IMG/VR virus record: IMGVR_UViG_3300029611_000001
Span: 25,067 to 89,066 of that record
Reading direction: 5' to 3' (one strand)
DNA length: 64,000 nt
DNA from: a virus
Taxonomy: Duplodnaviria; Heunggongvirae; Uroviricota; Caudoviricetes
The translations under genes were made by a program, and so were the position numbers. The notes beneath the pieces were generated by a model. It was not told the origin of the DNA and did not search any database. It worked only from the letters and a program-made list of their open reading frames with translations. Below, piece after piece: positions 10,052 through 63,165 of the stretch (positions are counted from its first letter, which is position 1; each line of letters begins with the position of its first letter).

Positions 10052-10345
10052 ATGGTCAACGTCGATGGATCCAAGAGGATCTGGAAGCAGCCGGAAATAA
10101 AAGATATTTTTGAAAAGTGCGGAGCGAAGAAGCCGGATAAAGCGACATGGGGCGATGTCCAATATGTCTTTGCAATGTACTATTCGGATGGTTTTCCGAA
10201 GGTCTTCAAATGTGAGAACGAGTTGGTGAAAGCTACGTTAATGTATTTGGATGATCCGGATGCTCCCGAAGGAGTAGCCTTTATAAGATGGCTTGCCGTG
10301 CAAGATTACCTCGGCGAAAAAATAAACTGGAAGGATCTGACCTGA
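10052..10345 (+). CDS. Hypothetical protein (97 aa)
   Basis: ORF; imperfect hairpin plus T-tract downstream (about 10440-10490). Confidence 0.45.
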   Translation: MVNVDGSKRIWKQPEIKDIFEKCGAKKPDKATWGDVQYVFAMYYSDGFPKVFKCENELVKATLMYLDDPDAPEGVAFIRWLAVQDYLGEKINWKDLT

Positions 10346-24843: not shown

Positions 24844-25363
24844 ATTCGAATTTTAGATTTTCAAGTTCATTCAATTGTTTCTTAGTCAATTCGATCAGGT
24901 ACGTTCTCCGTTCCTCTGCATGTTTTAAAGCTTCTTCTTTGCTCTCAAAAGCATCCCTTCCTATTTCATAAGGAGTGATCCTATCAGGAATGTCGGCTAA
25001 CAAAAGACCACCATACTCTTCTATTTTAGCTTTTACTTTTCTTATTATACCGTCTCTCATGCACGCATCTGTAATCCATATAAACCTATCACATTCTTCT
25101 AATTCCCTTTCGTACAATTCATACCATTCTGGTTTAGGAAATCTTAATGTAAATCTAATCTCGGTATCTTTTTCTAAGACATTAATATCATACGCCTCCG
25201 GCCACAGCTCTTTTATACTGTTCTCGTCTTCAGCATATGCTACCAATACAAATGAATTACTGGATTCTGCACTACACCAATATGGATATTTTATAGGCCA
25301 TTTGACTGGACGGTAATCATTGTTACAGTCATCCTTTCTAATGTAAAATCTTGCTTTAATCAT
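24833..25363 (-). CDS. Hypothetical protein (176 aa)
   Basis: ORF. Confidence 0.55.
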   Translation of the reverse strand: MIKARFYIRKDDCNNDYRPVKWPIKYPYWCSAESSNSFVLVAYAEDENSIKELWPEAYDINVLEKDTEIRFTLRFPKPEWYELYERELEECDRFIWITDACMRDGIIRKVKAKIEEYGGLLLADIPDRITPYEIGRDAFESKEEALKHAEERRTYLIELTKKQLNELENLKFECDD

Positions 25364-43102: not shown

Positions 43103-43351
43103 TCAAATTTTCTTCTTATGGTGTTGATTCTTTACCGCTCCGGCTACCTCCGACAACTCCACGTCCCTTTCCATTGTTACCCGAAAATCTTCTTCTGTTA
43201 AAGAAAAAGACATAGTTAATGTAGGAGTATCCTTAAAATACCAATCACATAATTCTTTTAACTCTTTACGTTCATCCTCGTTTTTACATTTATGAATGGT
43301 AAGGTAATTCATTCTTTCCTCTTTTTCTTTGTCTGTTAAATCTTTTTTCAT
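43103..43351 (-). CDS. Hypothetical protein (82 aa)
   Basis: ORF. Confidence 0.45.
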   Translation of the reverse strand: MKKDLTDKEKEERMNYLTIHKCKNEDERKELKELCDWYFKDTPTLTMSFSLTEEDFRVTMERDVELSEVAGAVKNQHHKKKI

Positions 43352-43384
43352 AATTCTAACTTTTAAAATTGAGTATATAATTAC

Positions 43385-43645
43385 CTAAGGTAATAGATCA
43401 TCCAAATAAGCCCATGATTCCATTTCATCTAATCTGCATAAAATACATCCTGGACGGCTGGATATAAAAGTTCTGTTCTCTTCCAATATACCCATAATTG
43501 GATTCTTTGATCCTATTGTTGATTTCTTAGGGAGAAACACAATAAAACGGTGGCAATCTGGAATTACTGTTATAGAATGCCACACGCTGTTAATGCGCCA
43601 TTCTGCACCAGCTTTAAAAAGAGGAATAGCATATTCTTGTTCCAT
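43385..43645 (-). CDS. Hypothetical protein (86 aa)
   Basis: ORF. Confidence 0.45.
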   Translation of the reverse strand: MEQEYAIPLFKAGAEWRINSVWHSITVIPDCHRFIVFLPKKSTIGSKNPIMGILEENRTFISSRPGCILCRLDEMESWAYLDDLLP

Positions 43646-46428: not shown

Positions 46429-46498
46429 TGCAATAAGTTGTTTTACTTTGTATTCTATAATCCTACCAACAAGTTCCCCGATGATAGAAAATATTCTA

Positions 46499-46666
46499 AT
46501 TCATAGAGGAAAGAAAAGAAGTAGCTCTTTCAAATTTTCTTCTTAGTTCATTAGACCATTGATGATCATAATCTGCCAATAATGATCCCATTTCCATTAT
46601 TAAGGAATAAACTTCTTCTTTTCTTGCTAAAAAAGATTGTTTGTCTTTTTCTTTTAATGTTTTCAT
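46499..46666 (-). CDS. Small helical protein (about 55 aa, below ORF-track cutoff) downstream of 45-bp repeat copy 1
   Basis: ATG at 46664-66 (minus) through stop at 46496-98. Confidence 0.35.
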
Positions 46667-46707
46667 GACTGTAACTTAAAAATGAATAATTAATTGATTT
46701 ATAAAAA
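46664..46707 (-). repeat. Copy 1 of about 45-bp conserved element (core TGAATAATTAATTGATTTATAAAAA); promoter-like or island boundary
   Basis: Near-identical copy at 52988-53033; both directly precede a small minus-strand ORF start. Confidence 0.6.
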
Positions 46708-46737
46708 ATGTGTTAAAATGACATATAAATGCCTTGA

Positions 46738-47535
46738 TCAATTGGACACAAATGTACAAGTTTTATTAAGATACCCTTCTGTCATCTCTATGAAATTCAC
46801 ACAATCTAATTTGCTTAACTTGTAAATCAATGCCGGATTGTGTACTATGGCTATAATTTGCGTTTGTGGTTTATGGAATGACAATACATTATAAATTTGC
46901 ATTATATTGTCAATGTCAAGATTCCTGTCTGGCTCATCCATGAGAACCGTGTATTCAAAACTGCTTTCTGTTAATGTTATGCGGTTTCTTTTATAATACT
47001 TCAACAGACTATCAATTCTTTTAATCCAAAACGCATTTGATTTTTTCTTGTATTCTACAAGATCTTGTATTGGAAACGTATAATCCTTTTGACCGAACAT
47101 TAAATTGAAAAGTGATTCCAATGATAACACCACTTTCTCTCCATAAGATCTTCTAATATTATTCACATACAAATCTAAGTTGCTGATGTTTTTCAATACG
47201 CTATCTCGATTCATCTCCGCCGATGGCAATAAACGGAATACTTTCCCTGCATAATCGGATGATATATCAATCCCATCAAGAACCTTATCATCATCATCAA
47301 ACATAGGTGGAAAATCCAGTGCCTCGGTCGGTATTTCAGAGCACATGGACTTCTCGCATAACGCATACATTGACATGATGTTAAGCAAAGTTGATTTTCC
47401 ACTACCGTTTTTACCTATAATTACATTCACTCCTGGCTTGAAAATAAATTCTCTACCATTTTCAAACGCTTCTATGTCAGAAGCATATTCAAATGGAGTT
47501 TTTGTATTGTCTTTTATTTTTACCGATGTTATCAT
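46738..47535 (-). CDS. ABC-type (AAA_21/SMC-like) ATPase
   Basis: Walker A GKNGSGKST, signature-like SYGEK, Walker B VLMDEPDRNLD, H-loop IVHNP. Confidence 0.75.
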   Translation of the reverse strand: MITSVKIKDNTKTPFEYASDIEAFENGREFIFKPGVNVIIGKNGSGKSTLLNIMSMYALCEKSMCSEIPTEALDFPPMFDDDDKVLDGIDISSDYAGKVFRLLPSAEMNRDSVLKNISNLDLYVNNIRRSYGEKVVLSLESLFNLMFGQKDYTFPIQDLVEYKKKSNAFWIKRIDSLLKYYKRNRITLTESSFEYTVLMDEPDRNLDIDNIMQIYNVLSFHKPQTQIIAIVHNPALIYKLSKLDCVNFIEMTEGYLNKTCTFVSN

Positions 47536-47547
47536 ATGTAATCCTTT

Positions 47548-48384
47548 TTAAAAATCAATTACCGCCCGAACCCTGTAACTATTGTACTCAATGTTGCTGT
47601 GCGTGCCGCCATTGGAGAAGCTCACGAACCATGCGCTGACCTTGCTGTACTCGGTACTGGACCAATACCGCGCCGAGGAGAGGGGAGATGCCGAAACATA
47701 AGCGAATGCTTTGTTTAGTTCGTCCATATGATGGGCCATTAAATTTAATTGACCAAGAGATGGTATATACTCGTCATCTTCCAGCAGATTTCTCAATTTT
47801 GGATTTCTGGCTACAAGGCGTTCCGTATTGCCGCGTCCGTCAATATCAAACAGCGCATCACATTCACGTTCGTAATATGTCTCACTTCCGGATTCTTTAC
47901 GGCTATCATTGTCAAGCAACCGTACACTATCATGCTCCTCCAGCGAGATAGCAAACGATACGTCTTTGTGTTTTAATCCGATATAACGCACATTCTCTTT
48001 AATATTCTCTCCAGTAAACGGCTCAGCGTGTCCGTTTCCGTAGATTAGATACAAACCATCTTTTCTTGATGGTACTCTATTTTCACATACGCATCTTTCA
48101 TTTTTTGGTCTTACAATTATGTTCAACTCATTCAACACATGATCTTTTATGACTTCCTTGCTTATTCTTTCTACAAAACCATAATTCCTTTGTTTAAGCT
48201 CATCATTTACCATACATCTGATCCAATTTTCTATCTGATTGTTTCCTCCGTATGTATTATGCATGCACCTTTTTACAAGCTTTTCCAATAATGATTCTAT
48301 GTTTTTGATTATATCTTCTTTGGTAAGGTGAAGTTCATTTAGTATGCAGTTTCTTACCGCCTTGTATTCTTTACTTGTGCTCAT
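47548..48384 (-). CDS. Protein with C-terminal DUF1566 / Fib_succ_major-like domain
   Basis: IPSLGQLNLM...YWSSTEYS...AWFVSFSNGG...YRVRAV; the 3' end of the gene is markedly GC-rich. Confidence 0.55.
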   Translation of the reverse strand: MSTSKEYKAVRNCILNELHLTKEDIIKNIESLLEKLVKRCMHNTYGGNNQIENWIRCMVNDELKQRNYGFVERISKEVIKDHVLNELNIIVRPKNERCVCENRVPSRKDGLYLIYGNGHAEPFTGENIKENVRYIGLKHKDVSFAISLEEHDSVRLLDNDSRKESGSETYYERECDALFDIDGRGNTERLVARNPKLRNLLEDDEYIPSLGQLNLMAHHMDELNKAFAYVSASPLSSARYWSSTEYSKVSAWFVSFSNGGTHSNIEYNSYRVRAVIDF

Positions 48385-48538
48385 AATATATCCACTTAAT
48401 ACTGTAAATTATATTTTTTCTCTCTCCCACTGTCTTCCCCTATAGGATTATTCCATCCATATTTTACAGCCGTAGCTTTAAATAGAGGAAGTCCATAAAA
48501 TCTATAATCATTCTCAAGATGAGCATATACTGTTGATT

Positions 48539-49219
48539 TCATTTCAGCTCTTTAATTAAAGCATCCGCATATATTACAGCTAATTCAGCCGCCTTATCAC
48601 ACGTCTCCAATATTAATTCACCGTGAGGTCCACGCCCTGATACGGATGTGATCGGAAGCATGGTTTTTGCCATCTCGTATCTACGTTGTTCCCAATCTAC
48701 ATGGGTGTTACACGGTTCTTGATTGACCTGTATATATCTTCCTTCAATATTAGAAGATCTTAATGTTTCCGCATTCTCTTCGCCGAATGCAACCAGAATA
48801 GACCCACATCCTGGACTTTCACCTATTGTTCCATCTTCTCTGTGGAATTTTATCCTTCCTTTCATGAACAATATACCTTTTGCTTTCGGGAATACAACAT
48901 CCTGAAACATCTTATTGTCAAGACGATTAAAAAGAAGAGCTATTCCATTATTGTGCTCTACCATACGAGCAATAAAATGCTCTATAGTCGGTCTTGAATA
49001 AGGTGGGTTTAACCATACCCTTCCTTCCCATTTTTGTTTTAATTCATCTTGCTCTTTGTTATACATAACCCTGGCTGTCCTCCATAACGGACGCATAGGC
49101 GCACATGGATCTAAATCAAATTTCCCTAAAGCGTCTATAATTTCTTTAGGTGTGTACCATTCATCTGTACTGTTTTTAGATTTCTCAAATGATGTATTTA
49201 TATATCTATGTTTTATAAG
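48539..49219 (-). CDS. Phage-type DNA N6-adenine methyltransferase (Dam family) lacking a canonical start codon
   Basis: In-frame upstream extension encodes DEWYTPKEIIDALGKFDLDPCA (motif I); WLNPPYS (motif IV); no ATG/GTG/TTG between the motif and the upstream gene's TAA. Confidence 0.7.
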   Translation of the reverse strand, partial: LIKHRYINTSFEKSKNSTDEWYTPKEIIDALGKFDLDPCAPMRPLWRTARVMYNKEQDELKQKWEGRVWLNPPYSRPTIEHFIARMVEHNNGIALLFNRLDNKMFQDVVFPKAKGILFMKGRIKFHREDGTIGESPGCGSILVAFGEENAETLRSSNIEGRYIQVNQEPCNTHVDWEQRRYEMAKTMLPITSVSGRGPHGELILETCDKAAELAVIYADALIKELK

Positions 49220-49882
49220 TTAATCCCATCCTCCAGTAGTGTACAAAGATACATCTTCCTCCTCTACGTTTACACCTTTAATAGCCTGTAGAAGTTTTTT
49301 CTTTGTCTCCCGGCACATATTGTAACCATATCCTTTATACCGATATGAGCGCTCCCATGTGCTTACTGGAAAAGGAATATTTTCGTCAATGACCAGCCTC
49401 TTCATATGAAGATGTTCGAAGAATTTCTCATGATAGAGTAGTTTGTACTCGTATGCTACTATGCTTGCGGATGAGAATGGAAAATAATCATCTTCTTTTT
49501 CTTCGTATTTGGGCTCCTTATAGTAAGCCATTTTTGTCACAGTAAAATCGAAGCTCCTAAGAATCTCTTTCGGCTTTCCAAACTCTGACTCTATGAACTC
49601 TATCCATACCTTTTCTCCCTCTTTCTGGAACGCACATACCTTCTCATTTCTGTACTTAAATTTCCATCCTTCTTTCTGATGTTTTTCATCATTGAACGAA
49701 TCAATAGCCTCCTGAAAATCGCTTTCACTTTCAAAGAAAATATCAATGTCTTTTACTCTTTCTCCGGAAAGGATATTTTTAAAACATCCACCAGCTATGA
49801 ATCCTTTGTGGCCTTCCATATACTTGTCAAGCCATCTTATTTGCCAGAAATTATCTGGAGTATCTATTACAAAATTATTCAT
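49220..49882 (-). CDS. Pol-beta superfamily nucleotidyltransferase (minimal NTase or CD-NTase-like)
   Basis: GGCFKNILSGERVKDIDIFF (G[GS]x9-13DxD) plus downstream FDF acidic residue. Confidence 0.55.
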   Translation of the reverse strand: MNNFVIDTPDNFWQIRWLDKYMEGHKGFIAGGCFKNILSGERVKDIDIFFESESDFQEAIDSFNDEKHQKEGWKFKYRNEKVCAFQKEGEKVWIEFIESEFGKPKEILRSFDFTVTKMAYYKEPKYEEKEDDYFPFSSASIVAYEYKLLYHEKFFEHLHMKRLVIDENIPFPVSTWERSYRYKGYGYNMCRETKKKLLQAIKGVNVEEEDVSLYTTGGWD

Positions 49883-49900
49883 ATTGCTTATGTTTTGCCG

Positions 49901-50155
49901 TTACCAAGCGAGATAAAAATTCCGCTTCACAATAATACAATGAGTGTAATTACTCAGGTCGATTCCGTTGTCCGTAAATGCATCCAGGACCCGTTTTTCC
50001 ACGTATTTGAGTTTTACTGTTATCCCCTTCTTAAACACTTCTATTAACTTCTCATTGCACTCAATAGGTCCAATAAGACAGTATCTATTCGAAGGACTGT
50101 CTGATATACAATATGTCTGACATCCTAACATGTTGCTTAAAATTACTTCGTTCAT
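49901..50155 (-). CDS. Hypothetical Cys-containing protein (84 aa)
   Basis: ORF. Confidence 0.45.
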   Translation of the reverse strand: MNEVILSNMLGCQTYCISDSPSNRYCLIGPIECNEKLIEVFKKGITVKLKYVEKRVLDAFTDNGIDLSNYTHCIIVKRNFYLAW

Positions 50156-50314
50156 AATTTCTCTATGATTCTAATATGGTGTCTACAAACTCCGTTATTT
50201 TATCAACGGATTCTTTTGATAAGGTATATCTTCTCCAATCCCATCTAAAATGCGCTTTTGGGAGATTTTTAGTAGAATATTTGGTGATTATATACAACTT
50301 TGCACCATCTATAT

Positions 50315-50360
50315 AAAACAGAAGCCGGATAATGATTAACGTATATCCGGCTTCTGTTTT
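50315..50360. terminator. 17-bp perfect inverted repeat hairpin (terminator or recombination site) after 344-aa gene
   Basis: aaaacagaagccggata-[12 nt]-tatccggcttctgtttt. Confidence 0.6.
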
Positions 50361-50366
50361 ATATGG

Positions 50367-51401
50367 TTAAAATTCTTTTTCGTTACCACCTTTTTTAGAG
50401 GTGGTTTTATCAAAAAGAGGGTCGTTAGGATCTGTTTTGGGATTATAGCTAAATATGCCTTTAGCTATTCTCTTCATATCTTCTTCTATGTTTGGATCTC
50501 CACATTCTCCCCTCATTATCTCGTCATACAACTTATCTTGTACTGGTAAAGCCTTATCTAACATTTCTTTGAACTTATCCCAATTGTAGTCTGAAGCCCT
50601 TCCCAATGCCTCTATTGCAGCTAAATGTTCTTTTAATTTAGGCTTTCCAAGATCCTCTGATAAGAATTGATGATCTTTTTTAGGTTTATACCCTTTCTCG
50701 TTTTTAGGGTTTCTTATCTTAAGTTCTTCAAGAACTCCCGGTCCAAGTCTTTTATAAACAATATCATTGATCCACTGACCAACAACGGCGGGCCTCTTAT
50801 GTATATTTTCCCAATCCCATCCCCTCATCTTGTAAATCATTTCAAAAAAGCTATCATTAAATGTTTTCACCCATTTACTTGCTTCCTCTGTAAGGAATTG
50901 ATTTAGGAATTTCTGTAGTTCGTCTTTCGCCCTATTTTTGTCTTCTTGATACCCTGTGGCTTCATCCACTAATGCTATGATACCAACTTTCGCGAGTGCT
51001 CTAACAATTATATCACATCTATTTATGACTGTTTGTTGATTGACACCTAAAGATGTTTTTTTGCTTAATGCACAATCTCTGGCATTAAGCATGATTTCGC
51101 AAATATCAGGTAATATTGTAGCTTCATAAGCCATTATTCTTCTATATCCTTTAAAACAAGGAAATGACTTATTTTTTACCGATAAATAACCATTTGGAAT
51201 ACAGTCGCTTATAGCTTTGGAGGATAGTATTTTTACTAATTTTGTACCCGATCTATCATTAGGATCGTCAAGTCCTAAAACGTTTTGCATTCCGGTAGTA
51301 GATAGGACTCTTCTACCATCCTCCAAAACGTAACAAGGAATTTTTAAACCATTGAGGTCTAATTCTCCTTCGTACTTGATTTTATTATCTATTTTTTCCA
51401 T
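50367..51401 (-). CDS. Antirepressor-like protein with Bro-N/KilA-N-like N-terminal domain and P63C-like C-terminal domain
   Basis: N-terminal LNGLKIPCYVLEDGRRVLSTTGMQNVLGL; C-terminal TGYQEDKNRAKDELQKFL...WVKTFNDSFFEMIYKMRGW. Confidence 0.5.
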   Translation of the reverse strand: MEKIDNKIKYEGELDLNGLKIPCYVLEDGRRVLSTTGMQNVLGLDDPNDRSGTKLVKILSSKAISDCIPNGYLSVKNKSFPCFKGYRRIMAYEATILPDICEIMLNARDCALSKKTSLGVNQQTVINRCDIIVRALAKVGIIALVDEATGYQEDKNRAKDELQKFLNQFLTEEASKWVKTFNDSFFEMIYKMRGWDWENIHKRPAVVGQWINDIVYKRLGPGVLEELKIRNPKNEKGYKPKKDHQFLSEDLGKPKLKEHLAAIEALGRASDYNWDKFKEMLDKALPVQDKLYDEIMRGECGDPNIEEDMKRIAKGIFSYNPKTDPNDPLFDKTTSKKGGNEKEF

Positions 51402-51405
51402 TGCA

Positions 51406-52317
51406 TTAATTAATTTGTGAATACCTTAATCGTCGTTTGGTATTCTGCAAAAATACATCGAATCTTTCAGATTCCGATAGATGTTTCGTGTTATATCTGA
51501 AAGATTCGCAATCTACATATCTTTGAAGATGTTTTCTCGACACCCAGAAATGGGTTCCAGAAATCATTTTCTTCAAATGGCTCCAATATCCTTCGATTGT
51601 GTTTGTTGATCTTCTGCCTATTACATACGCTCCCTTTTTGTGATATACTTTTTGATGATCAAACTTTTCTTTGTCGATCCCGTTATACGCATACCATTCG
51701 TCAGAATATATGGTAGAATTAGGATGAACGGTATTGTATATCAAAGGAAGTAAGGTTTTACCTTTTGTGTCTGTAACGACATAAGCGACAACAAATCCTT
51801 CTCGTTGGAGTGTCCCAAACACAGGGGTTTTATCTTTTAAAGATCTCCCCTGTGCATCTTTAACTTTATCCTTACTATGTCTATTCTTGTTTTTGCCACC
51901 AATATAAGTTTCATCCACTTCAATCTCGCCTTTCAAACACGGCTCTTTTATTTCAATACTAAAACAATTGTGAATACGTTGAAGCATAAACCAAGCCGTT
52001 TTCTGTGTTACTCCCACGATTTTAGACAACTGTAAAGATGATACTCCTCTTTTCATTTCAACAACAAAATAACAAGCCAACATCCATTTTCGTAATGAGA
52101 CTTTCGAATTTTCAAAAATCGTTCCTGTACGAACATTGAAGTATTTACCCGTGTTTTTACACTTGTACCTATTTCCTTTGCATTTATACACCTTAGATTC
52201 CGGATCAAAAGGAGAAACAACGTGATCTCCCCACCTTTCTTTTTCAAGAAAGGTTATACACGCTTGCTCATCAGGGAACAATTTTGAAAATTCGGGAAGT
52301 GATTTAAAATCGAACAT
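51406..52317 (-). mobile_element. IS1595-family (ISXO2-like DDE) transposase gene
   Basis: VEIDETYIGGKNKN and NTIEGYWSHLKKMI motifs; N-terminal zinc-binding region. Confidence 0.7.
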
Positions 52318-52485
52318 ACTTCTTATCTTTATATTGGATTATAAAAATACAAAAATATATTCATATAACCAACTAAAAATCAATTAAATTCATCGAATAT
52401 ATGATTTTGAATTATTTTTTTTTGTTGTTAAATTTCTAATTCTTTTCTATTTTTGAGGACTGTCTAACTTAATAATACTAATATC

Positions 52486-52863
52486 ATGGAAAATGGAAAA
52501 TGCTATGTTAAAGAAGTAATAGATTTTTCTATTAGAGAAATATCCTCTAATGAAAAAGTTATAATTTTTATTTGCGACACAAAACAACATGCAGAAGAAT
52601 TACTATCAAATATAAAGGAAAACGAAATAATTTACTTCCAAATGATAATAAACGACGGTAAAGTATCCTTTTTAATTAGACAGAGTAATCATCCCAATAT
52701 TGATATGATATATGAAACGGGTTATAAATATTCAGAATATAAACCATTTGAGTGGATTCTTAATAATCAAGTAAAATTCTTCTCTACTGGATATTATATT
52801 GATGACAAAAATACACTCGGTATAATTACAAATTACATTTGCTTGCCTCTACGAATCAAATAA
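52486..52863 (+). CDS. Hypothetical protein (125 aa), lone plus-strand gene in minus-strand block
   Basis: ORF. Confidence 0.45.
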   Translation: MENGKCYVKEVIDFSIREISSNEKVIIFICDTKQHAEELLSNIKENEIIYFQMIINDGKVSFLIRQSNHPNIDMIYETGYKYSEYKPFEWILNNQVKFFSTGYYIDDKNTLGIITNYICLPLRIK

Positions 52864-52987
52864 CATTCTCCTTTTTTATTAGGATGCTTCTTAAACGGAT
52901 CTTTTGGCAAATATATGTATTCATACTTATCAGTACATTTTTTTTGTTTCTCTAAATTAGATGAAGTGTTTTTTCTTTTTTCTTGTC

Positions 52988-53033
52988 TCATAATTTTAAC
53001 TTTTAAAAGTGAATAATTAATTGATTTATAAAA
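52988..53033 (-). repeat. Copy 2 of about 45-bp conserved element (TGAATAATTAATTGATTTATAAAAA)
   Basis: Matches 46664-46707; precedes a roughly 48-aa minus-strand ORF (ATG at 52988-90). Confidence 0.6.
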
Positions 53034-53087
53034 AGAAAGCGGTGATAAACTAAGTTACCACCGCTTTTACTATCATATTGTTTCGTA

Positions 53088-53483
53088 TTACTTTATTTTG
53101 TACATTGAGAAATCTTCAAAATCACCAGATATACAATCAAGTTTCAGCCAACCTTCTGACACCTTTACATCATAAACAATAGGTGGCTCAGGGTCACTAT
53201 CAAATACAATGACTAATCTCATTGTATTTTTATCAAAAGAGTATGTGAAAGGATCTGGGCTTTTCTTTTTGCCTTCATTGTAATATACAGTCATTACGCC
53301 TGTATCGTCATTATAAAATGTGAGTTCGAAAAATTCATCTGCGGGGAATTGCTCTCCCCATGAACCTATTAATATGCTGTTATTGTCATTATTCACATTA
53401 TCATCGTTACACGAAAATGTGAATAAAAGTAGCAAGGTTAATAATATATGTAGTACTTGTTTCATGTTATTGTTAAAATTCAT
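53088..53483 (-). CDS. Lipoprotein (signal peptide plus Cys lipobox)
   Basis: MKQVLHILLTLLLLFTFSCNDD. Confidence 0.55.
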   Translation of the reverse strand: MNFNNNMKQVLHILLTLLLLFTFSCNDDNVNNDNNSILIGSWGEQFPADEFFELTFYNDDTGVMTVYYNEGKKKSPDPFTYSFDKNTMRLVIVFDSDPEPPIVYDVKVSEGWLKLDCISGDFEDFSMYKIK

Positions 53484-54177
53484 ATCCGACCTTTATACTA
53501 AATCCGTTCATGTCACCACTTCCATCTCCCCATTCTTCATCAAATGATACCTTTTGTATAGAATATCCTATACCTAAATTAACAGCTTGTTTTTTAGTAG
53601 TCATAAACCGTACACCAATAAAAGGGTTACAATACAATCCACCTTTTTTTGCATGTCTTGGTGCTTCTTTGGTATTGAACTTATACCCTATTCTTAATGC
53701 AATAAAAGGTGATATTGGACCATTTAAGGCATATCCTCTCACATCAGCAAATATAGGTATGCTTACTGTTGAATAATCGGTCATATAGTGTATGCCGGTT
53801 CCACCTCCTACAAATAAATACTGATTGATTTGGCTTCCATACGTGAAATATAATTCTGGACCTTTGTATCCACCTGCCCAGTATCCAAGATCAATCATAA
53901 ATCTACTCCCTGTCAAATCGTACTTTTCATTGGATATCTTAAATGGAATTTTAGATTCTTTCTCTTCTTTGGTTATTTTACTGATATCTTCCATAGGGTA
54001 CACAAACGTACTACCATCAGAAGTGCGAATAGTAATTTGCTTGTCTGGTATCTGCTCGATAATAACCCCTTTTATAACACTTCCATTTTTTAAATGAATA
54101 GCTTCAACCATTTTGTTCTGTGAGTAAGCGCATACACTACCCAATAGAACAACTAACAATAATAGATACTTTTTCAT
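53473..54177 (-). CDS. Outer-membrane beta-barrel protein (signal peptide, C-terminal aromatic residue)
   Basis: MKKYLLLLVVLLGSVCAYSQ signal peptide; alternating beta pattern; ends ...VGYEF. Confidence 0.55.
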   Translation of the reverse strand: MKKYLLLLVVLLGSVCAYSQNKMVEAIHLKNGSVIKGVIIEQIPDKQITIRTSDGSTFVYPMEDISKITKEEKESKIPFKISNEKYDLTGSRFMIDLGYWAGGYKGPELYFTYGSQINQYLFVGGGTGIHYMTDYSTVSIPIFADVRGYALNGPISPFIALRIGYKFNTKEAPRHAKKGGLYCNPFIGVRFMTTKKQAVNLGIGYSIQKVSFDEEWGDGSGDMNGFSIKVGYEF

Positions 54178-54672
54178 ATGAAATAATTTTGCTCTTTCTG
54201 CCTCCTTCGAAAGATTAACAAAAAAAAGAAGCGTGGAGACTATTGGATACTACCGCATTGAGGTCTTGGACTACCCTTCGCACAATAGTAAACAATAGCC
54301 CCACGCCTTATGTCAGTATACTATTATCCCTCTTGTATAATCAGAATGCGTATACAACAACATAGGCGTAGGAGCTGTATGTCTATTATCTTGTGCGAAT
54401 GAAAGTGTCCAAGTTTCAATGCAAGATAATATCTTAACGCTTCTACGTCTTTATTCTAATACGTGAGGGCAAAGATAGTTATTCTATCTAATATTTTAAA
54501 ACGGCTTAAAAGGATTTAATTTGATGTAAAATGAATATTGGGAATTTTAACAGTTCGTATTTTTGCATAAACAACAAAATATCTAAGATCATGAACAAAT
54601 GCAAAAAGCCATCAAGAAAAACAGCCAGTAAAGCAGGCAAGTTATTAAGAAAGAAGATATCTTCCAAAGATG

Positions 54673-55017
54673 TTAAAACTCTTGCAGGTTACACTTTACA
54701 AGCCGCTTCCCGTCGTGGAAAAAGTAAGAGTGGTTGCCAAAAGAAAGGAAAATAAGTTCTTTAATACAAGCTTTTGGTATGGTCATTATACCAGAAGCTT
54801 GTTCTAATGTATTGGAATTACCAACAGCATAATGACCAGCTACAGATATAGATCTCTCATTTTCATGTACAACAATACCATAGCTCTCTATTTCTGATAT
54901 ATCTGTTTCGTAATCCTCCAGATCTACCCATGTTCTTTCTGATAGGTTGGAATCTATCCACTTAACTAATACCCGCTTGTTTAAAAGCGATTCTTTTTTA
55001 TGTCTATTCTTTTTCAT
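54673..55017 (-). CDS. Hypothetical protein (114 aa)
   Basis: ORF. Confidence 0.45.
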   Translation of the reverse strand: MKKNRHKKESLLNKRVLVKWIDSNLSERTWVDLEDYETDISEIESYGIVVHENERSISVAGHYAVGNSNTLEQASGIMTIPKACIKELIFLSFGNHSYFFHDGKRLVKCNLQEF

Positions 55018-55126
55018 AACTTGTTATATTGATTTTTTAGTAAACGAAAAGAGATTGTGCCAGCATTTTGACACAATCTCAATTATATGGGAATAATACT
55101 AAGGAAAGGTGTAAAGTGGTATATAA

Positions 55127-55420
55127 TTACCTGAAATAATTAAAAAGCCTATACCATCCCTTTCCGTTACATGTTTCACAATTCCATATTCCAGCAAGCT
55201 TCCTATATCCCCTTACCGGTATTCTCTCTATTTCTTTTGGTACGATCTTGACATACTTTCCTTCTCCGATTGGTATGGTCATATTACCTGCCTCTTTCGT
55301 GCAAAAGTATTCTATTTCAGATGCCATTCCTTTATACATATAGAACCGGTATAAGTTCCCGTCAGGGTCTACCCGATCCATGTAATATAATATCACTTTA
55401 TCTACTTTTATCGTTTTCAT
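55127..55420 (-). CDS. Hypothetical protein (97 aa)
   Basis: ORF. Confidence 0.45.
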   Translation of the reverse strand: MKTIKVDKVILYYMDRVDPDGNLYRFYMYKGMASEIEYFCTKEAGNMTIPIGEGKYVKIVPKEIERIPVRGYRKLAGIWNCETCNGKGWYRLFNYFR

Positions 55421-59649: not shown

Positions 59650-59745
59650 TTGTGAGATGCCCAGAATCGAACCAGGACCGGCACATACGCACCGGCACGC
59701 CGCGTCATCCCTCTATGATACAGAAATAGGCATGTCTATCCTCAC
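59650..59745 (-). tRNA. tRNA-like element: canonical T-arm (GGTTCGATTCT) and acceptor 3' strand; 5' half not resolvable by hand (possible tRNA gene, intron-containing tRNA or tRNA 3' fragment)
   Basis: Plus strand TGTGAGATGCCCAGAATCGAACCAGG is the reverse complement of a tRNA T-loop/acceptor end; sits in an intergenic gap; 8-bp perfect hairpin GGCATGTC...GACATGCC upstream. Confidence 0.4.
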
Positions 59746-60898: not shown

Positions 60899-60990
60899 TG
60901 TGAGATCGCCGGAATCGAACCAGCCTACCGCACCATGAATCCCATAAAGCAAATGCTCCGATCTTCGCAGACGGGAGCATTCTGTCTAAA
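60899..60990 (-). tRNA. tRNA-like element with canonical T-arm (GGTTCGATTCC) and acceptor 3' strand; close paralog of the 59650 element
   Basis: Plus strand TGTGAGATCGCCGGAATCGAACCAGC; a possible acceptor partner TGGGATT lies only about 25 nt upstream, which would give a minihelix-like fold. Confidence 0.4.
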
Positions 60991-63082: not shown

Positions 63083-63165
63083 GGTTGCTCCGGAATCGAA
63101 CCGAACACGCATTCCTATTCTATACGAATTTTATGCTACAACCAACAGCCCGTAATTAGTACGTA
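63083..63165 (-). tRNA. tRNA-like element with canonical T-arm (GGTTCGATTCC); possibly the 3' portion of a tRNA whose 5' part is separated by the structured region 63160-63640
   Basis: Plus strand AGGTTGCTCCGGAATCGAACCGAAC; a partial acceptor partner GGTTGTA lies about 55 nt upstream. Confidence 0.35.

Follow-up and report, generated by a model that had tools for sequence, protein, structure and literature searches.

A candidate IS1595-family cargo transposon and putative portable leader repeats in the accessory region of a large human-gut phage

The window analysed here, a stretch of 64,000 nucleotides from the IMG/VR virus record IMGVR_UViG_3300029611_000001 (positions 25,067 to 89,066), is part of a human-gut phage of about 150 kb related to csAssE-Sib, and the genes of its ~23-64 kb portion all lie on the minus strand. 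Between 46.5 and 53.0 kb, two direct repeats enclose genes for a small ABC/SMC-type ATPase, a DUF1566-like protein, a Dam methyltransferase, a putative nucleotidyltransferase, a P63C-domain protein and an IS1595-family transposase, all of which an earlier reading of the sequence (the original prediction) had joined in a single island of about 6.3 kb, bracketed by the repeats and moving as a unit. In the reading that we favour with good confidence, this interval would straddle two things in a hyperplastic accessory region, a row of accessory genes and a cargo transposon of the insertion sequence (IS) family IS1595, and the repeats would be portable leaders instead of island borders (Table 1). 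The listed genes were all present: the ATPase, P63C and transposase assignments were solid, as was that of Dam with its in-frame N-terminus; that of the DUF1566-like protein was weak and below the Pfam threshold, and the nucleotidyltransferase, with no Pfam match, was supported by PHROG profiles and a sequence motif.

A megablast search with the 44-56 kb segment as query returned csAssE-Sib (OR575929.1; human gut, 151 kb) as the single annotated relative, with ~94% identity at 43% coverage in nine pieces. Comparative material was nevertheless ample, since the ATPase of this region is encoded on 326 IMG/VR viral contigs, mostly of 75-155 kb. The best 80 of these 326 contigs were used for an ATPase-anchored comparison, and the best 80 of 235 for a transposase-anchored one; the left repeat could be scored in 76 related contigs, those extending 1 kb or more past the ATPase gene, and the transposase in 66, those whose sequence upstream of that gene reaches at least 6.5 kb. 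Compared loci are cited below by L numbers where they have to be told apart.

The terminal inverted repeats of the transposon match at 21 of 24 positions and form the only such pair in the 64 kb, and the ends differ by one or two mismatches from the family consensus. Homology to csAssE-Sib stops at 50282|50283 and homology to other relatives at 55131|55132, the sequence reading ...TTATTTCA|AATACAAGCC in about 30 relatives and ...GGAAATGAA|AAATATTC in about 20. The transposase matched PF12762 over profile positions 2-153 of 153 (3.7e-42) and NF033547 with 193 bits against a cutoff of 75, its N-terminal zinc ribbon matched PF12760 at 5.8e-4, below the cutoff of that profile, and the triad D135/D206/E242 was retained together with all residues invariant among mobile copies. 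Of the features that define IS1595 membership, the transposase domain and the terminal inverted repeats were found, and the 8-bp duplication was lacking around the window copy. The mobility gene that the original prediction had assigned to its island was right in spirit, but the mobile unit is 50283-55131 and excludes the nucleotidyltransferase, Dam, DUF1566 and ATPase genes.

The transposase gene is followed by the P63C gene within 4 nt, a pairing that recurs in phage lineages at transposase identities of 72%, 55%, 51% and 50%, and in 10 of 80 bacterial loci (Bacteroidota, Saccharibacteria, Azovibrio, Pedobacter, Clostridium, Acuticoccus). The core of the transposon would comprise the transposase gene, the closely spaced P63C gene and a terminator hairpin, with the passengers placed between the far inverted repeat and the transposase. 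In most close relatives (L083-L090, L002 and L051; homologs of 50485-51414) P63C is replaced by a small ORF (open reading frame; MKKNKKFTISTTTT...) that keeps only the C-terminal ~40 aa of P63C, and the C-terminus of the transposase differs accordingly. The arrangement in csAssE-Sib was considered as an empty site of the transposase and rejected: its P63C is a 62-aa remnant cut at both ends, indicating a deletion and not a pre-insertion site.

The scan of the phage loci yielded 45 inverted-repeat pairs with arms 51 bp to 5.5 kb apart. Perfect 8-bp target duplications of differing sequence flanked such elements in nine different phage contigs (Table 1), and for five of these nine, precise empty sites were found in relatives, in which the 8-mer is single-copy. 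The reconstructed junction of the L002 element was spanned by 40 loci, one of them at 100% identity, and that of the L085 element by 38 loci, csAssE-Sib among them. These duplications of the sister copies and the matching empty sites demonstrate transposition of this element family into related phage genomes; in mechanistic terms, the transposase of the sister copies acts on the 24-nt ends and inserts the element with duplication of 8 bp of target.

A very improbable alternative is that the 24-nt inverted repeats are the halves of a regulatory stem-loop, such as a split terminator or a cassette resembling the promoter-early stem-loop (PeSL) of T4-type phages, into which DNA is exchanged by recombination, and are not transposon ends. 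The arms do stand back to back as 51-bp hairpins in L006 (4132-4182), L091 (8815-8865) and L092 (6238-6288), and also in L095, L108 and L113, and their spacing varies continuously over the range given above. However, stem-loop exchange does not fit the perfect, differing 8-bp duplications at nine phage sites and the precise empty sites, nor the same type of ends with duplications around transposase-P63C pairs in Azovibrio, Saccharibacteria and Bacteroides. The 51-bp forms, as well as transposase-less copies of about 325 bp (L030 3111-3433, L011 6203-6529, L082 7794-8120), fit deletion derivatives similar to miniature inverted-repeat transposable elements (MITEs), the 323-bp L030 copy being itself flanked by a duplication and having 16 empty sites.

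The bacterial elements with phage-type ends and 8-bp duplications comprised two besides the Bacteroides copies. The transposase-P63C pair of L205 has long terminal inverted repeats of the phage-motif type (GGGGTAACTATATACAATTTTACAC), and that of L206 has the same end type (GGCGATTATATA..., GGCGATTATATATTTAACACACCTAA) and an 8-bp duplication (CTATTTTT). In Bacteroides, a chromosomal element of 3.1 kb (L242-L246), with ends GGCATTTATATAC... and GGCAGTTATATAT..., was present as four copies 99.97% identical in unrelated contexts, with four different perfect 8-bp duplications. It resembles the window element in the order of transposase and P63C, with overlapping or nearly overlapping ORFs, in its end type and duplications, and in a P63C protein ~55% identical to that of the window; it differs in having a single passenger ORF of 226 aa downstream of P63C on the opposite strand, whereas the cargo of the window element lies upstream of the transposase. 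In L245 (5136-6303) an IS with a Mutator-type transposase is inserted between P63C and this 226-aa ORF. A close bacterial donor of the transposon was sought in 185,579 species genomes and rejected, the best match being ~55% identical; such distant bacterial transposases point to a separate phage-resident lineage and not to a recent host-to-phage jump.

Along the direction of transcription, the window copy runs from its cargo-side end (55131-55108) through a hairpin, a 114-aa ORF, a 495-nt spacer, a 234-aa gene resembling outer-membrane proteins (OMP-like), a 131-aa lipoprotein gene, a terminator, a leader repeat, a 52-aa ORF, a divergent 125-aa ORF, the transposase and P63C genes and a 21-bp hairpin to its opposite end (50306-50283). 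The ORFs occupying the divergent slot in the sister elements all begin with ATGGAAAA or ATGAAAAA, and it is with the start codon of the divergent ORF that the conserved transposase block ends on its upstream side (52494-52501); these positions were rejected as an IS boundary, being the start of that variable slot. Likewise, a weak inverted repeat close to the transposase gene (51394-51408 / 52479-52493, 12 of 15 matching) was rejected as the IS ends, its arms being the ATGGAAAA starts of the flanking ORFs. Diverged sister elements with 72% transposase identity carry a 44%-identical homolog of the OMP-like cargo gene, which suggests that this gene is kept by selection.

Table 1. Features of the window (positions in the 64,000-nt stretch) and duplication-flanked sister elements in related phage contigs (lengths).
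Feature	Position or length	Strand	Remarks
Third, diverged leader copy	43349..43396	-	Heads 82-aa ORF 43103-43351; nhmmer E = 4e-7
Left-repeat indel cassette, ~310 bp (repeat and 56-aa ORF)	46431..46739	-	In 23/76 informative relatives
56-aa ORF (MKTLKEKDKQ...)	46496..46666	-	Headed by left repeat
Left leader copy	46664..46713	-	Ends in ATG of ORF 46496-46666
Small ABC/SMC-type P-loop ATPase, 265 aa	46738..47535	-	SMC_N, AAA_21 and AAA_23 matches
DUF1566/Lcl_C-like protein, 278 aa	47548..48384	-	Weak C-terminal domain, 9e-5, below gathering score; PHROG 4245
48-aa ORF	48396..48542	-	C-terminal remnant of 145-aa gene; PHROG 5706, profile positions 106-144 of 149
Phage Dam-family N6-adenine methyltransferase gene, 220 codons	48539..49201	-	Pfam Dam 4e-15 with in-frame N-terminus included
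Pol-beta-type nucleotidyltransferase-like protein, 220 aa	49220..49882	-	PHROG 4400 (6e-66, no function); PHROG 1614 'nucleotidyltransferase' (1.5e-8)
IS1595-family cargo transposon, 4849 bp	50283..55131	-	24-nt terminal inverted repeats; both termini exact homology breakpoints
Terminal inverted repeat, P63C side	50283..50306	+	GGTGATTATATACAACTTTGCACC
Terminator-like hairpin	50311..50364	-	Perfect 21-bp stem then T-run; directly after P63C stop
P63C-domain protein, 344 aa	50367..51401	-	3e-27; conserved partner of transposase
IS1595-family DDE transposase, 303 aa	51406..52317	-	Pfam 4e-42, NCBIfam 5e-57; Zn-ribbon N-terminus
125-aa ORF, divergently transcribed variable slot	52486..52863	+	At least 6 unrelated ORFs at slot in sister elements
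52-aa ORF (MRQEKRK...)	52833..52991	-	Headed by right repeat; 1 of 5 alternative small ORFs at slot
Right leader copy	52989..53042	-	Inside transposon
Intrinsic-terminator-like hairpin	53036..53067	-	Strong, 13 pairs and T-run; immediately upstream of right repeat
Cargo: 131-aa predicted lipoprotein	53088..53483	-	DUF5640-like, 2.7e-6, just below gathering score
Cargo: 234-aa secreted protein	53473..54177	-	Weak outer-membrane beta-barrel signal
Cargo: 114-aa ORF	54673..55017	-	Preceded by hairpin 55051-55080
Terminal inverted repeat, cargo side	55108..55131	-	GGTAATTATATACCACTTTACACC; supplies TAA stop of truncated gene 55127-55420
Sister element L002 (same contig as L089)	3313 bp		Duplication GTTTTTTA
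Sister element L085	3153 bp		Duplication ACTAAAAT
Sister element L093	3874 bp		Duplication TAAGGTTA
Sister element L103	4450 bp		Duplication TTATGTTA
Sister element L106	5467 bp		Duplication TTTAATAG
Sister element L111	3667 bp		Duplication TAATGGAA
Sister element L124	2811 bp		Duplication TAAAAAAC
Sister element L141	3917 bp		Duplication ATATATTT
Sister element L030 (no transposase, MITE-like)	323 bp		Duplication AATTAGAA; 16 empty sites

Several observations weigh against the transposon reading or limit it. No target duplication flanks the window copy (GAATATTT vs TGAAATAA), no simple empty site for it was found among the compared loci, and neither of its junction sequences has an exact match in IMG/VR, so that its present mobility is putative. 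Among the inverted-repeat pairs of the phage loci, 35 of 45 were without a perfect duplication. For P63C, the AlphaFold2 model had a pLDDT of 71.8, the best Foldseek match against the PDB had an E of 0.27, and an APSES/KilA-N-like match at rank 3 was not significant.

The cargo-side end of the window copy interrupts gene 55127-55420, which encodes 97 aa compared with ~171 aa in relatives, with AGG TAA within GGTAATT... as its stop; the remainder of this gene was not found beyond the other transposon end. In L087 and L088 the cargo-side end lies 5 nt away in the same gene, also without duplication. As the duplication is absent and the 171-aa phage gene is cut to 97 aa, the window copy probably underwent a secondary deletion or a recombination between copies, judging from its sequence; it may have inserted and then lost adjacent DNA, or two differently placed copies may have recombined. 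It is unlikely, though worth weighing seriously, that the whole of 50283-55131 is no functional transposon copy but a fossil or hybrid left by homologous recombination between two copies at different sites, or an assembly strain switch inside a shared element. The missing duplication and empty site, the junctions unique in IMG/VR and the end 5 nt off in L087 and L088 would all agree with this, as would the finding that the flanks adjoining here are 0.5-8 kb apart in relatives, with other DNA between them. Yet both ends are intact and match each other at 21 of 24 positions, the transposase and P63C ORFs are full length with the catalytic residues kept, and a hybrid origin does not amount to immobility, for it concerns the history of this copy and not the nature of the element.

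The two direct repeats of about 45 nt on which the original prediction was built are real. Their ungapped core, obtained from a repeat search of the window, matches at 31 of 32 positions (46676-46707 vs 53003-53034), and the gapped alignment (~46 columns, ~87% identical) reaches a CAT from which, read on the minus strand, ORFs 46496-46666 and 52833-52991 take their ATG. With up to three mismatches, the 26-nt core occurs exactly twice in the 64 kb, against 0.00 occurrences expected. Each repeat heads a small minus-strand ORF, as had been stated, but a third and diverged copy at 43.35 kb had been missed. The 5' part of this third copy contains an IS-end-like 13-mer (43373-43385, GGTAATTATATAC) identical to the start of the transposon end; the 13-mer occurs only three times in the window, the other two being the real transposon ends, and the third copy may be an IS-end remnant fused to the leader.

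An nhmmer profile built from the three window copies found 62 leader copies, of 16 sequence variants, in the window and the compared loci. The small ORFs that these copies head are of at least six unrelated types (MKTLKEKDKQ, MRQEKRK, MKKDLTDKEKE, MKTSKENG, MKTIESRK, MKTKEEKQ), and the copies sit in at least four upstream contexts, one ORF type being found behind different contexts. The copy in csAssE-Sib is a hybrid, with an upstream half of the 43.3-kb type and a downstream half of the 53.0-kb type. Homology among sister transposons ends at 52970-52991, within the first codons behind the repeat, and the slot behind terminator and repeat holds five alternative small ORFs in otherwise homologous transposons, that of L086 being a homolog of the ORF of the left repeat. 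The left cassette is a clean indel, relatives without it having 12 nt between the ATPase stop and the next gene, and the terminator stem-loop was present at the right copy and at every transposon-borne copy in relatives. The varied ORFs and contexts, the hybrid copy, the slot breakpoints, the left indel and the terminator adjacent to the right copy together argue, at the level of sequence, that the repeats are a portable 5' leader extending up to and including the ATG of small ORFs. Through this leader, acting as a short shared homology, small-ORF cassettes would be swapped between sites and between genomes.

The leader is probably also a phage-specific promoter, and the second possibility raised in the original prediction, that the repeats are duplicated promoters before small minus-strand ORFs, is consistent with the data. 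Speaking against a promoter, a simple scan found no sigma-70-like site at either repeat (the promoter type of the host or phage may differ), no TAnnTTTG box was seen by eye in the repeat, though such boxes were found upstream of other window genes, and a terminator adjoins the right copy only, the left and 43.35-kb copies having none. A role as general promoter of this arm was rejected, the leader being absent upstream of about 30 other minus-strand genes.

The closest described analogue of these leader cassettes is the T4-type PeSL (Arbiol et al. 2010, PMC2839356; Comeau et al. 2014, PMC4122927). Both are short conserved regulatory repeats that flank small non-essential ORFs in a hyperplastic region of a large phage; as in PeSL-type cassettes, leader copies coincide with the breakpoints of insertions, deletions and replacements between close relatives, and the right copy is a composite of terminator stem-loop and leader. 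Unlike PeSLs, the leaders show no recognisable sigma-70-type promoter, have only three copies in 64 kb, two of them without a stem-loop, and are conserved through the 5' leader into the start codon, with no evidence of mini-circles.

The distribution of the genes between 46.66 and 53.03 kb is not that of one unit. Related phages carry the same genes at the same place without the left repeat, an observation that the original prediction had itself named as telling against an island. The left repeat was missing in 53 of the 76 informative relatives, among which 47 had the DUF1566 gene in place and 38 had both the DUF1566 and nucleotidyltransferase genes; the transposase stood upstream of the ATPase in only 2 of 66 informative contigs, and a repeat copy in 1 of 66. 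As ATPase and DUF1566 genes are retained in place by 47 of the 53 relatives lacking the left repeat, a single island moving as a unit is refuted. In the presence and order matrix of the 80 ATPase-anchored loci, the DUF1566 gene was present in 78, the nucleotidyltransferase in 56, the 84-aa ORF in 50, Dam in 20-30 (the alternative being a 337-nt module), the left repeat with its ORF in 27 (alternatives being a 332-nt module, an 814-nt module or nothing) and the transposase in 3, each varying independently of the others. By segment-wise blastn, csAssE-Sib has at the same place blocks for the ATPase (97% identical), the DUF1566 gene (89%) and the nucleotidyltransferase with the 84-aa ORF (94%), but it has no left repeat with the attached ORF, no Dam, no transposase and no P63C gene of full length; its P63C remnant and the ORF of the right repeat are contiguous, next to a homolog of the 43.3-kb site.

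That 46664-53033 is nonetheless one defence or counter-defence island, gained and lost through recombination between the repeats or moved by the IS1595 transposase, is extremely improbable. Such an island could explain why the repeats are real, direct and non-random and why the genes between them are accessory and include a transposase, and the ATPase does match the ATPases of defence systems in PADLOC (mad3 2.5e-16, AriA 2.5e-12). These matches, however, cover no more than the P-loop of generic ABC ATPases. The right repeat lies within a transposon that has its ends elsewhere, and the left repeat is outside it, in the separate indel cassette. The single-repeat empty site that a deletion between the repeats would leave was found in none of the compared relatives; L086, which combines the terminator context with a left-type ORF, was considered as such a product and rejected, since it is a cassette swap with the transposase still downstream. 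The defence or counter-defence label is likewise not supported, as PADLOC-DB 2.0 showed no system architecture: only the ATPase (generic P-loop of mad3, AriA, PtuA, GajA and others) and Dam ('orphan MTase') had matches, and the DUF1566-like protein, the nucleotidyltransferase, P63C and the small ORFs had none. Individual genes may have an anti-defence role. The repeat-bracketed segment as earlier described is ordinary phage mosaicism, and beneath it is a phage-resident family of IS1595/P63C cargo transposons.

The row at 46.7-50.3 kb would be a set of co-directional genes (ATPase, DUF1566-like, Dam, nucleotidyltransferase and an 84-aa ORF) in which the ATPase is clade-wide and the others are gained, lost or replaced singly. 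From the ATPase to the nucleotidyltransferase, with the 48-aa ORF counted, the tandem genes are spaced at 12, 11, -4 and 18 nt. Being conserved across the whole phage clade, the ATPase is not island cargo; its 668 detectable homologs are all from phage-like or metagenomic contigs, and against the sequences of solved structures it gave only P-loop matches to ABC-F and Rad50 proteins. The nucleotidyltransferase carries the motif GGCFKNILSGERVKDIDIF, read in the sequence as a Pol-beta-type GG-x12-DxD, and its homolog is annotated as 'polyA polymerase' in csAssE-Sib; searches of Pfam and of solved-structure sequences with this protein returned no match. The 145-aa gene of which the window keeps a 48-aa remnant is intact in csAssE-Sib (L001 10971-11408); in the window the Dam module replaces its 5' part, and the two states, Dam or the 337-nt alternative, segregate among relatives.

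The gene upstream of the ATPase, at a gap of 9-12 nt, was DUF1566-like in 75 of 83 loci; in more distant phages, at a gap of 9 nt, it encodes a radical-SAM protein (L251 2460-4295) or an unrelated 262-aa protein (L254 2703-4316). Several defence systems typically have an ATPase of the ABC/AAA_21 type whose partner can be swapped. It is conceivable, if rather doubtful, that the ATPase and its tightly coupled upstream gene form a two-gene module with an exchangeable partner, serving defence, anti-defence or superinfection exclusion independently of the repeats. The constant presence of a partner at 9-12 nt and the PADLOC similarity of the ATPase would favour such a module. Its counter-evidence is that the partner matches no PADLOC model, that all ATPase homologs are on phage-like or metagenomic contigs, and that the pair is split in Sib-like genomes, where an extra ORF of 73 aa parts the ATPase from the DUF1566 gene (also in L046, L048, L049 and L079), in csAssE-Sib together with a solo IS-end-like sequence between the two genes (GGTGATTATACACCACTTTACGCA; L001 ~10076-10099).

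The Dam gene had been described as startless, and accurately so: the conserved N-terminal motif of Dam precedes the first ATG, in the same frame, and no canonical start codon goes with it. The frame is open back to the nucleotidyltransferase stop and holds the conserved DEWYTPKEIIDALGKFDLDPCAP region, with no ATG, GTG or TTG. The codon at the start position (49199-49201, minus strand) is ATA, where every module-carrying relative has ATG (ATG AAT ACA TCA...), so that this is a full-length Dam gene with a single G-to-A point mutation in its start codon. Either the gene was inactivated very recently or the allele initiates weakly, and with ATA in place of the ATG of its relatives Dam is probably silenced or weakly translated in this genome. 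The gene resembles the phage orphan Dam methyltransferases (PF05869; TIGR01712) in its full domain, NPPY motif and N-terminal DEWYTP...DLDPCA, and differs in the start codon.

Elsewhere in the window, GC skew and AT skew sharply flip sign at ~22-23 kb (~22500), where plus-strand genes give way to minus-strand ones, and this switch is the border of two divergent transcription arms. Upstream of the minus-strand genes 36473 and 42141 (~36500 and ~42160), TATCTTTG matches the Bacteroidota -7 box TAnnTTTG; such boxes, and the signal peptides of lipoprotein and OMP type that the cargo genes encode, hint at a Bacteroidota host. A tRNA T-loop-like sequence, GGTTCGATTCYGG, occurs on the minus strand at 59661-59673, 60909-60921 and 63090-63102 (three seen, against a chance expectation of 0.13), in each case ~30-60 nt ahead of the start of an ORF. 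Scans of the window with Rfam and ARAGORN gave zero matches, and thus no tRNA at these sites; the motifs may be what is left of tRNA genes, or they may be regulatory.

As cited in PMC3129680 and PMC4611040, the IS1595 family includes passenger-carrying 'transporter IS' (Siguier, Gagnevin & Chandler 2009, Res Microbiol 160:232). The window element shares with them a DDE transposase with an N-terminal Zn ribbon, extra genes inside its ends, ends that start GG..ATTAT and, in sister copies, 8-bp duplications. It departs from them in lying in a phage genome and not in a chromosome or plasmid, in having P63C as a conserved second gene directly after the transposase across phyla, in carrying its cargo between the far end and the transposase with an exchangeable cassette slot, and in the missing duplication of the window copy. 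Its residence and repeated transposition in phages, the P63C partner, the exchangeable-cassette cargo and the MITE-like derivatives in phages are unusual. A literature search found, in the library covered, no paper in which IS1595 and P63C appear together and nothing relevant on 'csAssE'. The ends GGTGATTAT / GGCGATTAT / GGTAACTAT may be of the type of the ISNwi1 subgroup ('ggnnatTAT'), and the element may fall in the size range of its passenger-carrying members.

Insertion sequences are, to our knowledge, regarded as rare in phage genomes, and homing endonucleases and recombination are the usual explanation for the mosaicism of virulent-type phages. In the present case, target duplications together with the corresponding empty sites place a DDE transposon family at many sites in widespread large gut phages, with passengers that include predicted cell-envelope proteins and an exchangeable cassette slot, offering a concrete path, open to testing, by which genes could pass between phages and their Bacteroidota hosts. 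The repeats carry a further lesson: where an accessory region of a phage contains short direct repeats, these can be regulatory leaders in shared use and not island borders, and many close relatives tell the two apart quickly. The transposase, P63C and the 24-nt ends form a minimal system for asking what P63C does, a domain widespread in phages and Bacteroides. Tentatively, and with somewhat more doubt than belief in the combination as a whole, we propose that an IS1595 lineage with a dedicated P63C has become resident in human-gut phages of ~150 kb that form a very common clade, probably of Bacteroidota phages; that it transposes repeatedly within their hyperplastic region and leaves MITE-like derivatives of 51 bp and ~325 bp; that it may both carry envelope-protein genes and small ORFs as cargo and supply portable homology driving mosaicism; and that P63C may be a cofactor, in transposition or in regulation, for this IS subgroup in bacteria and phages.

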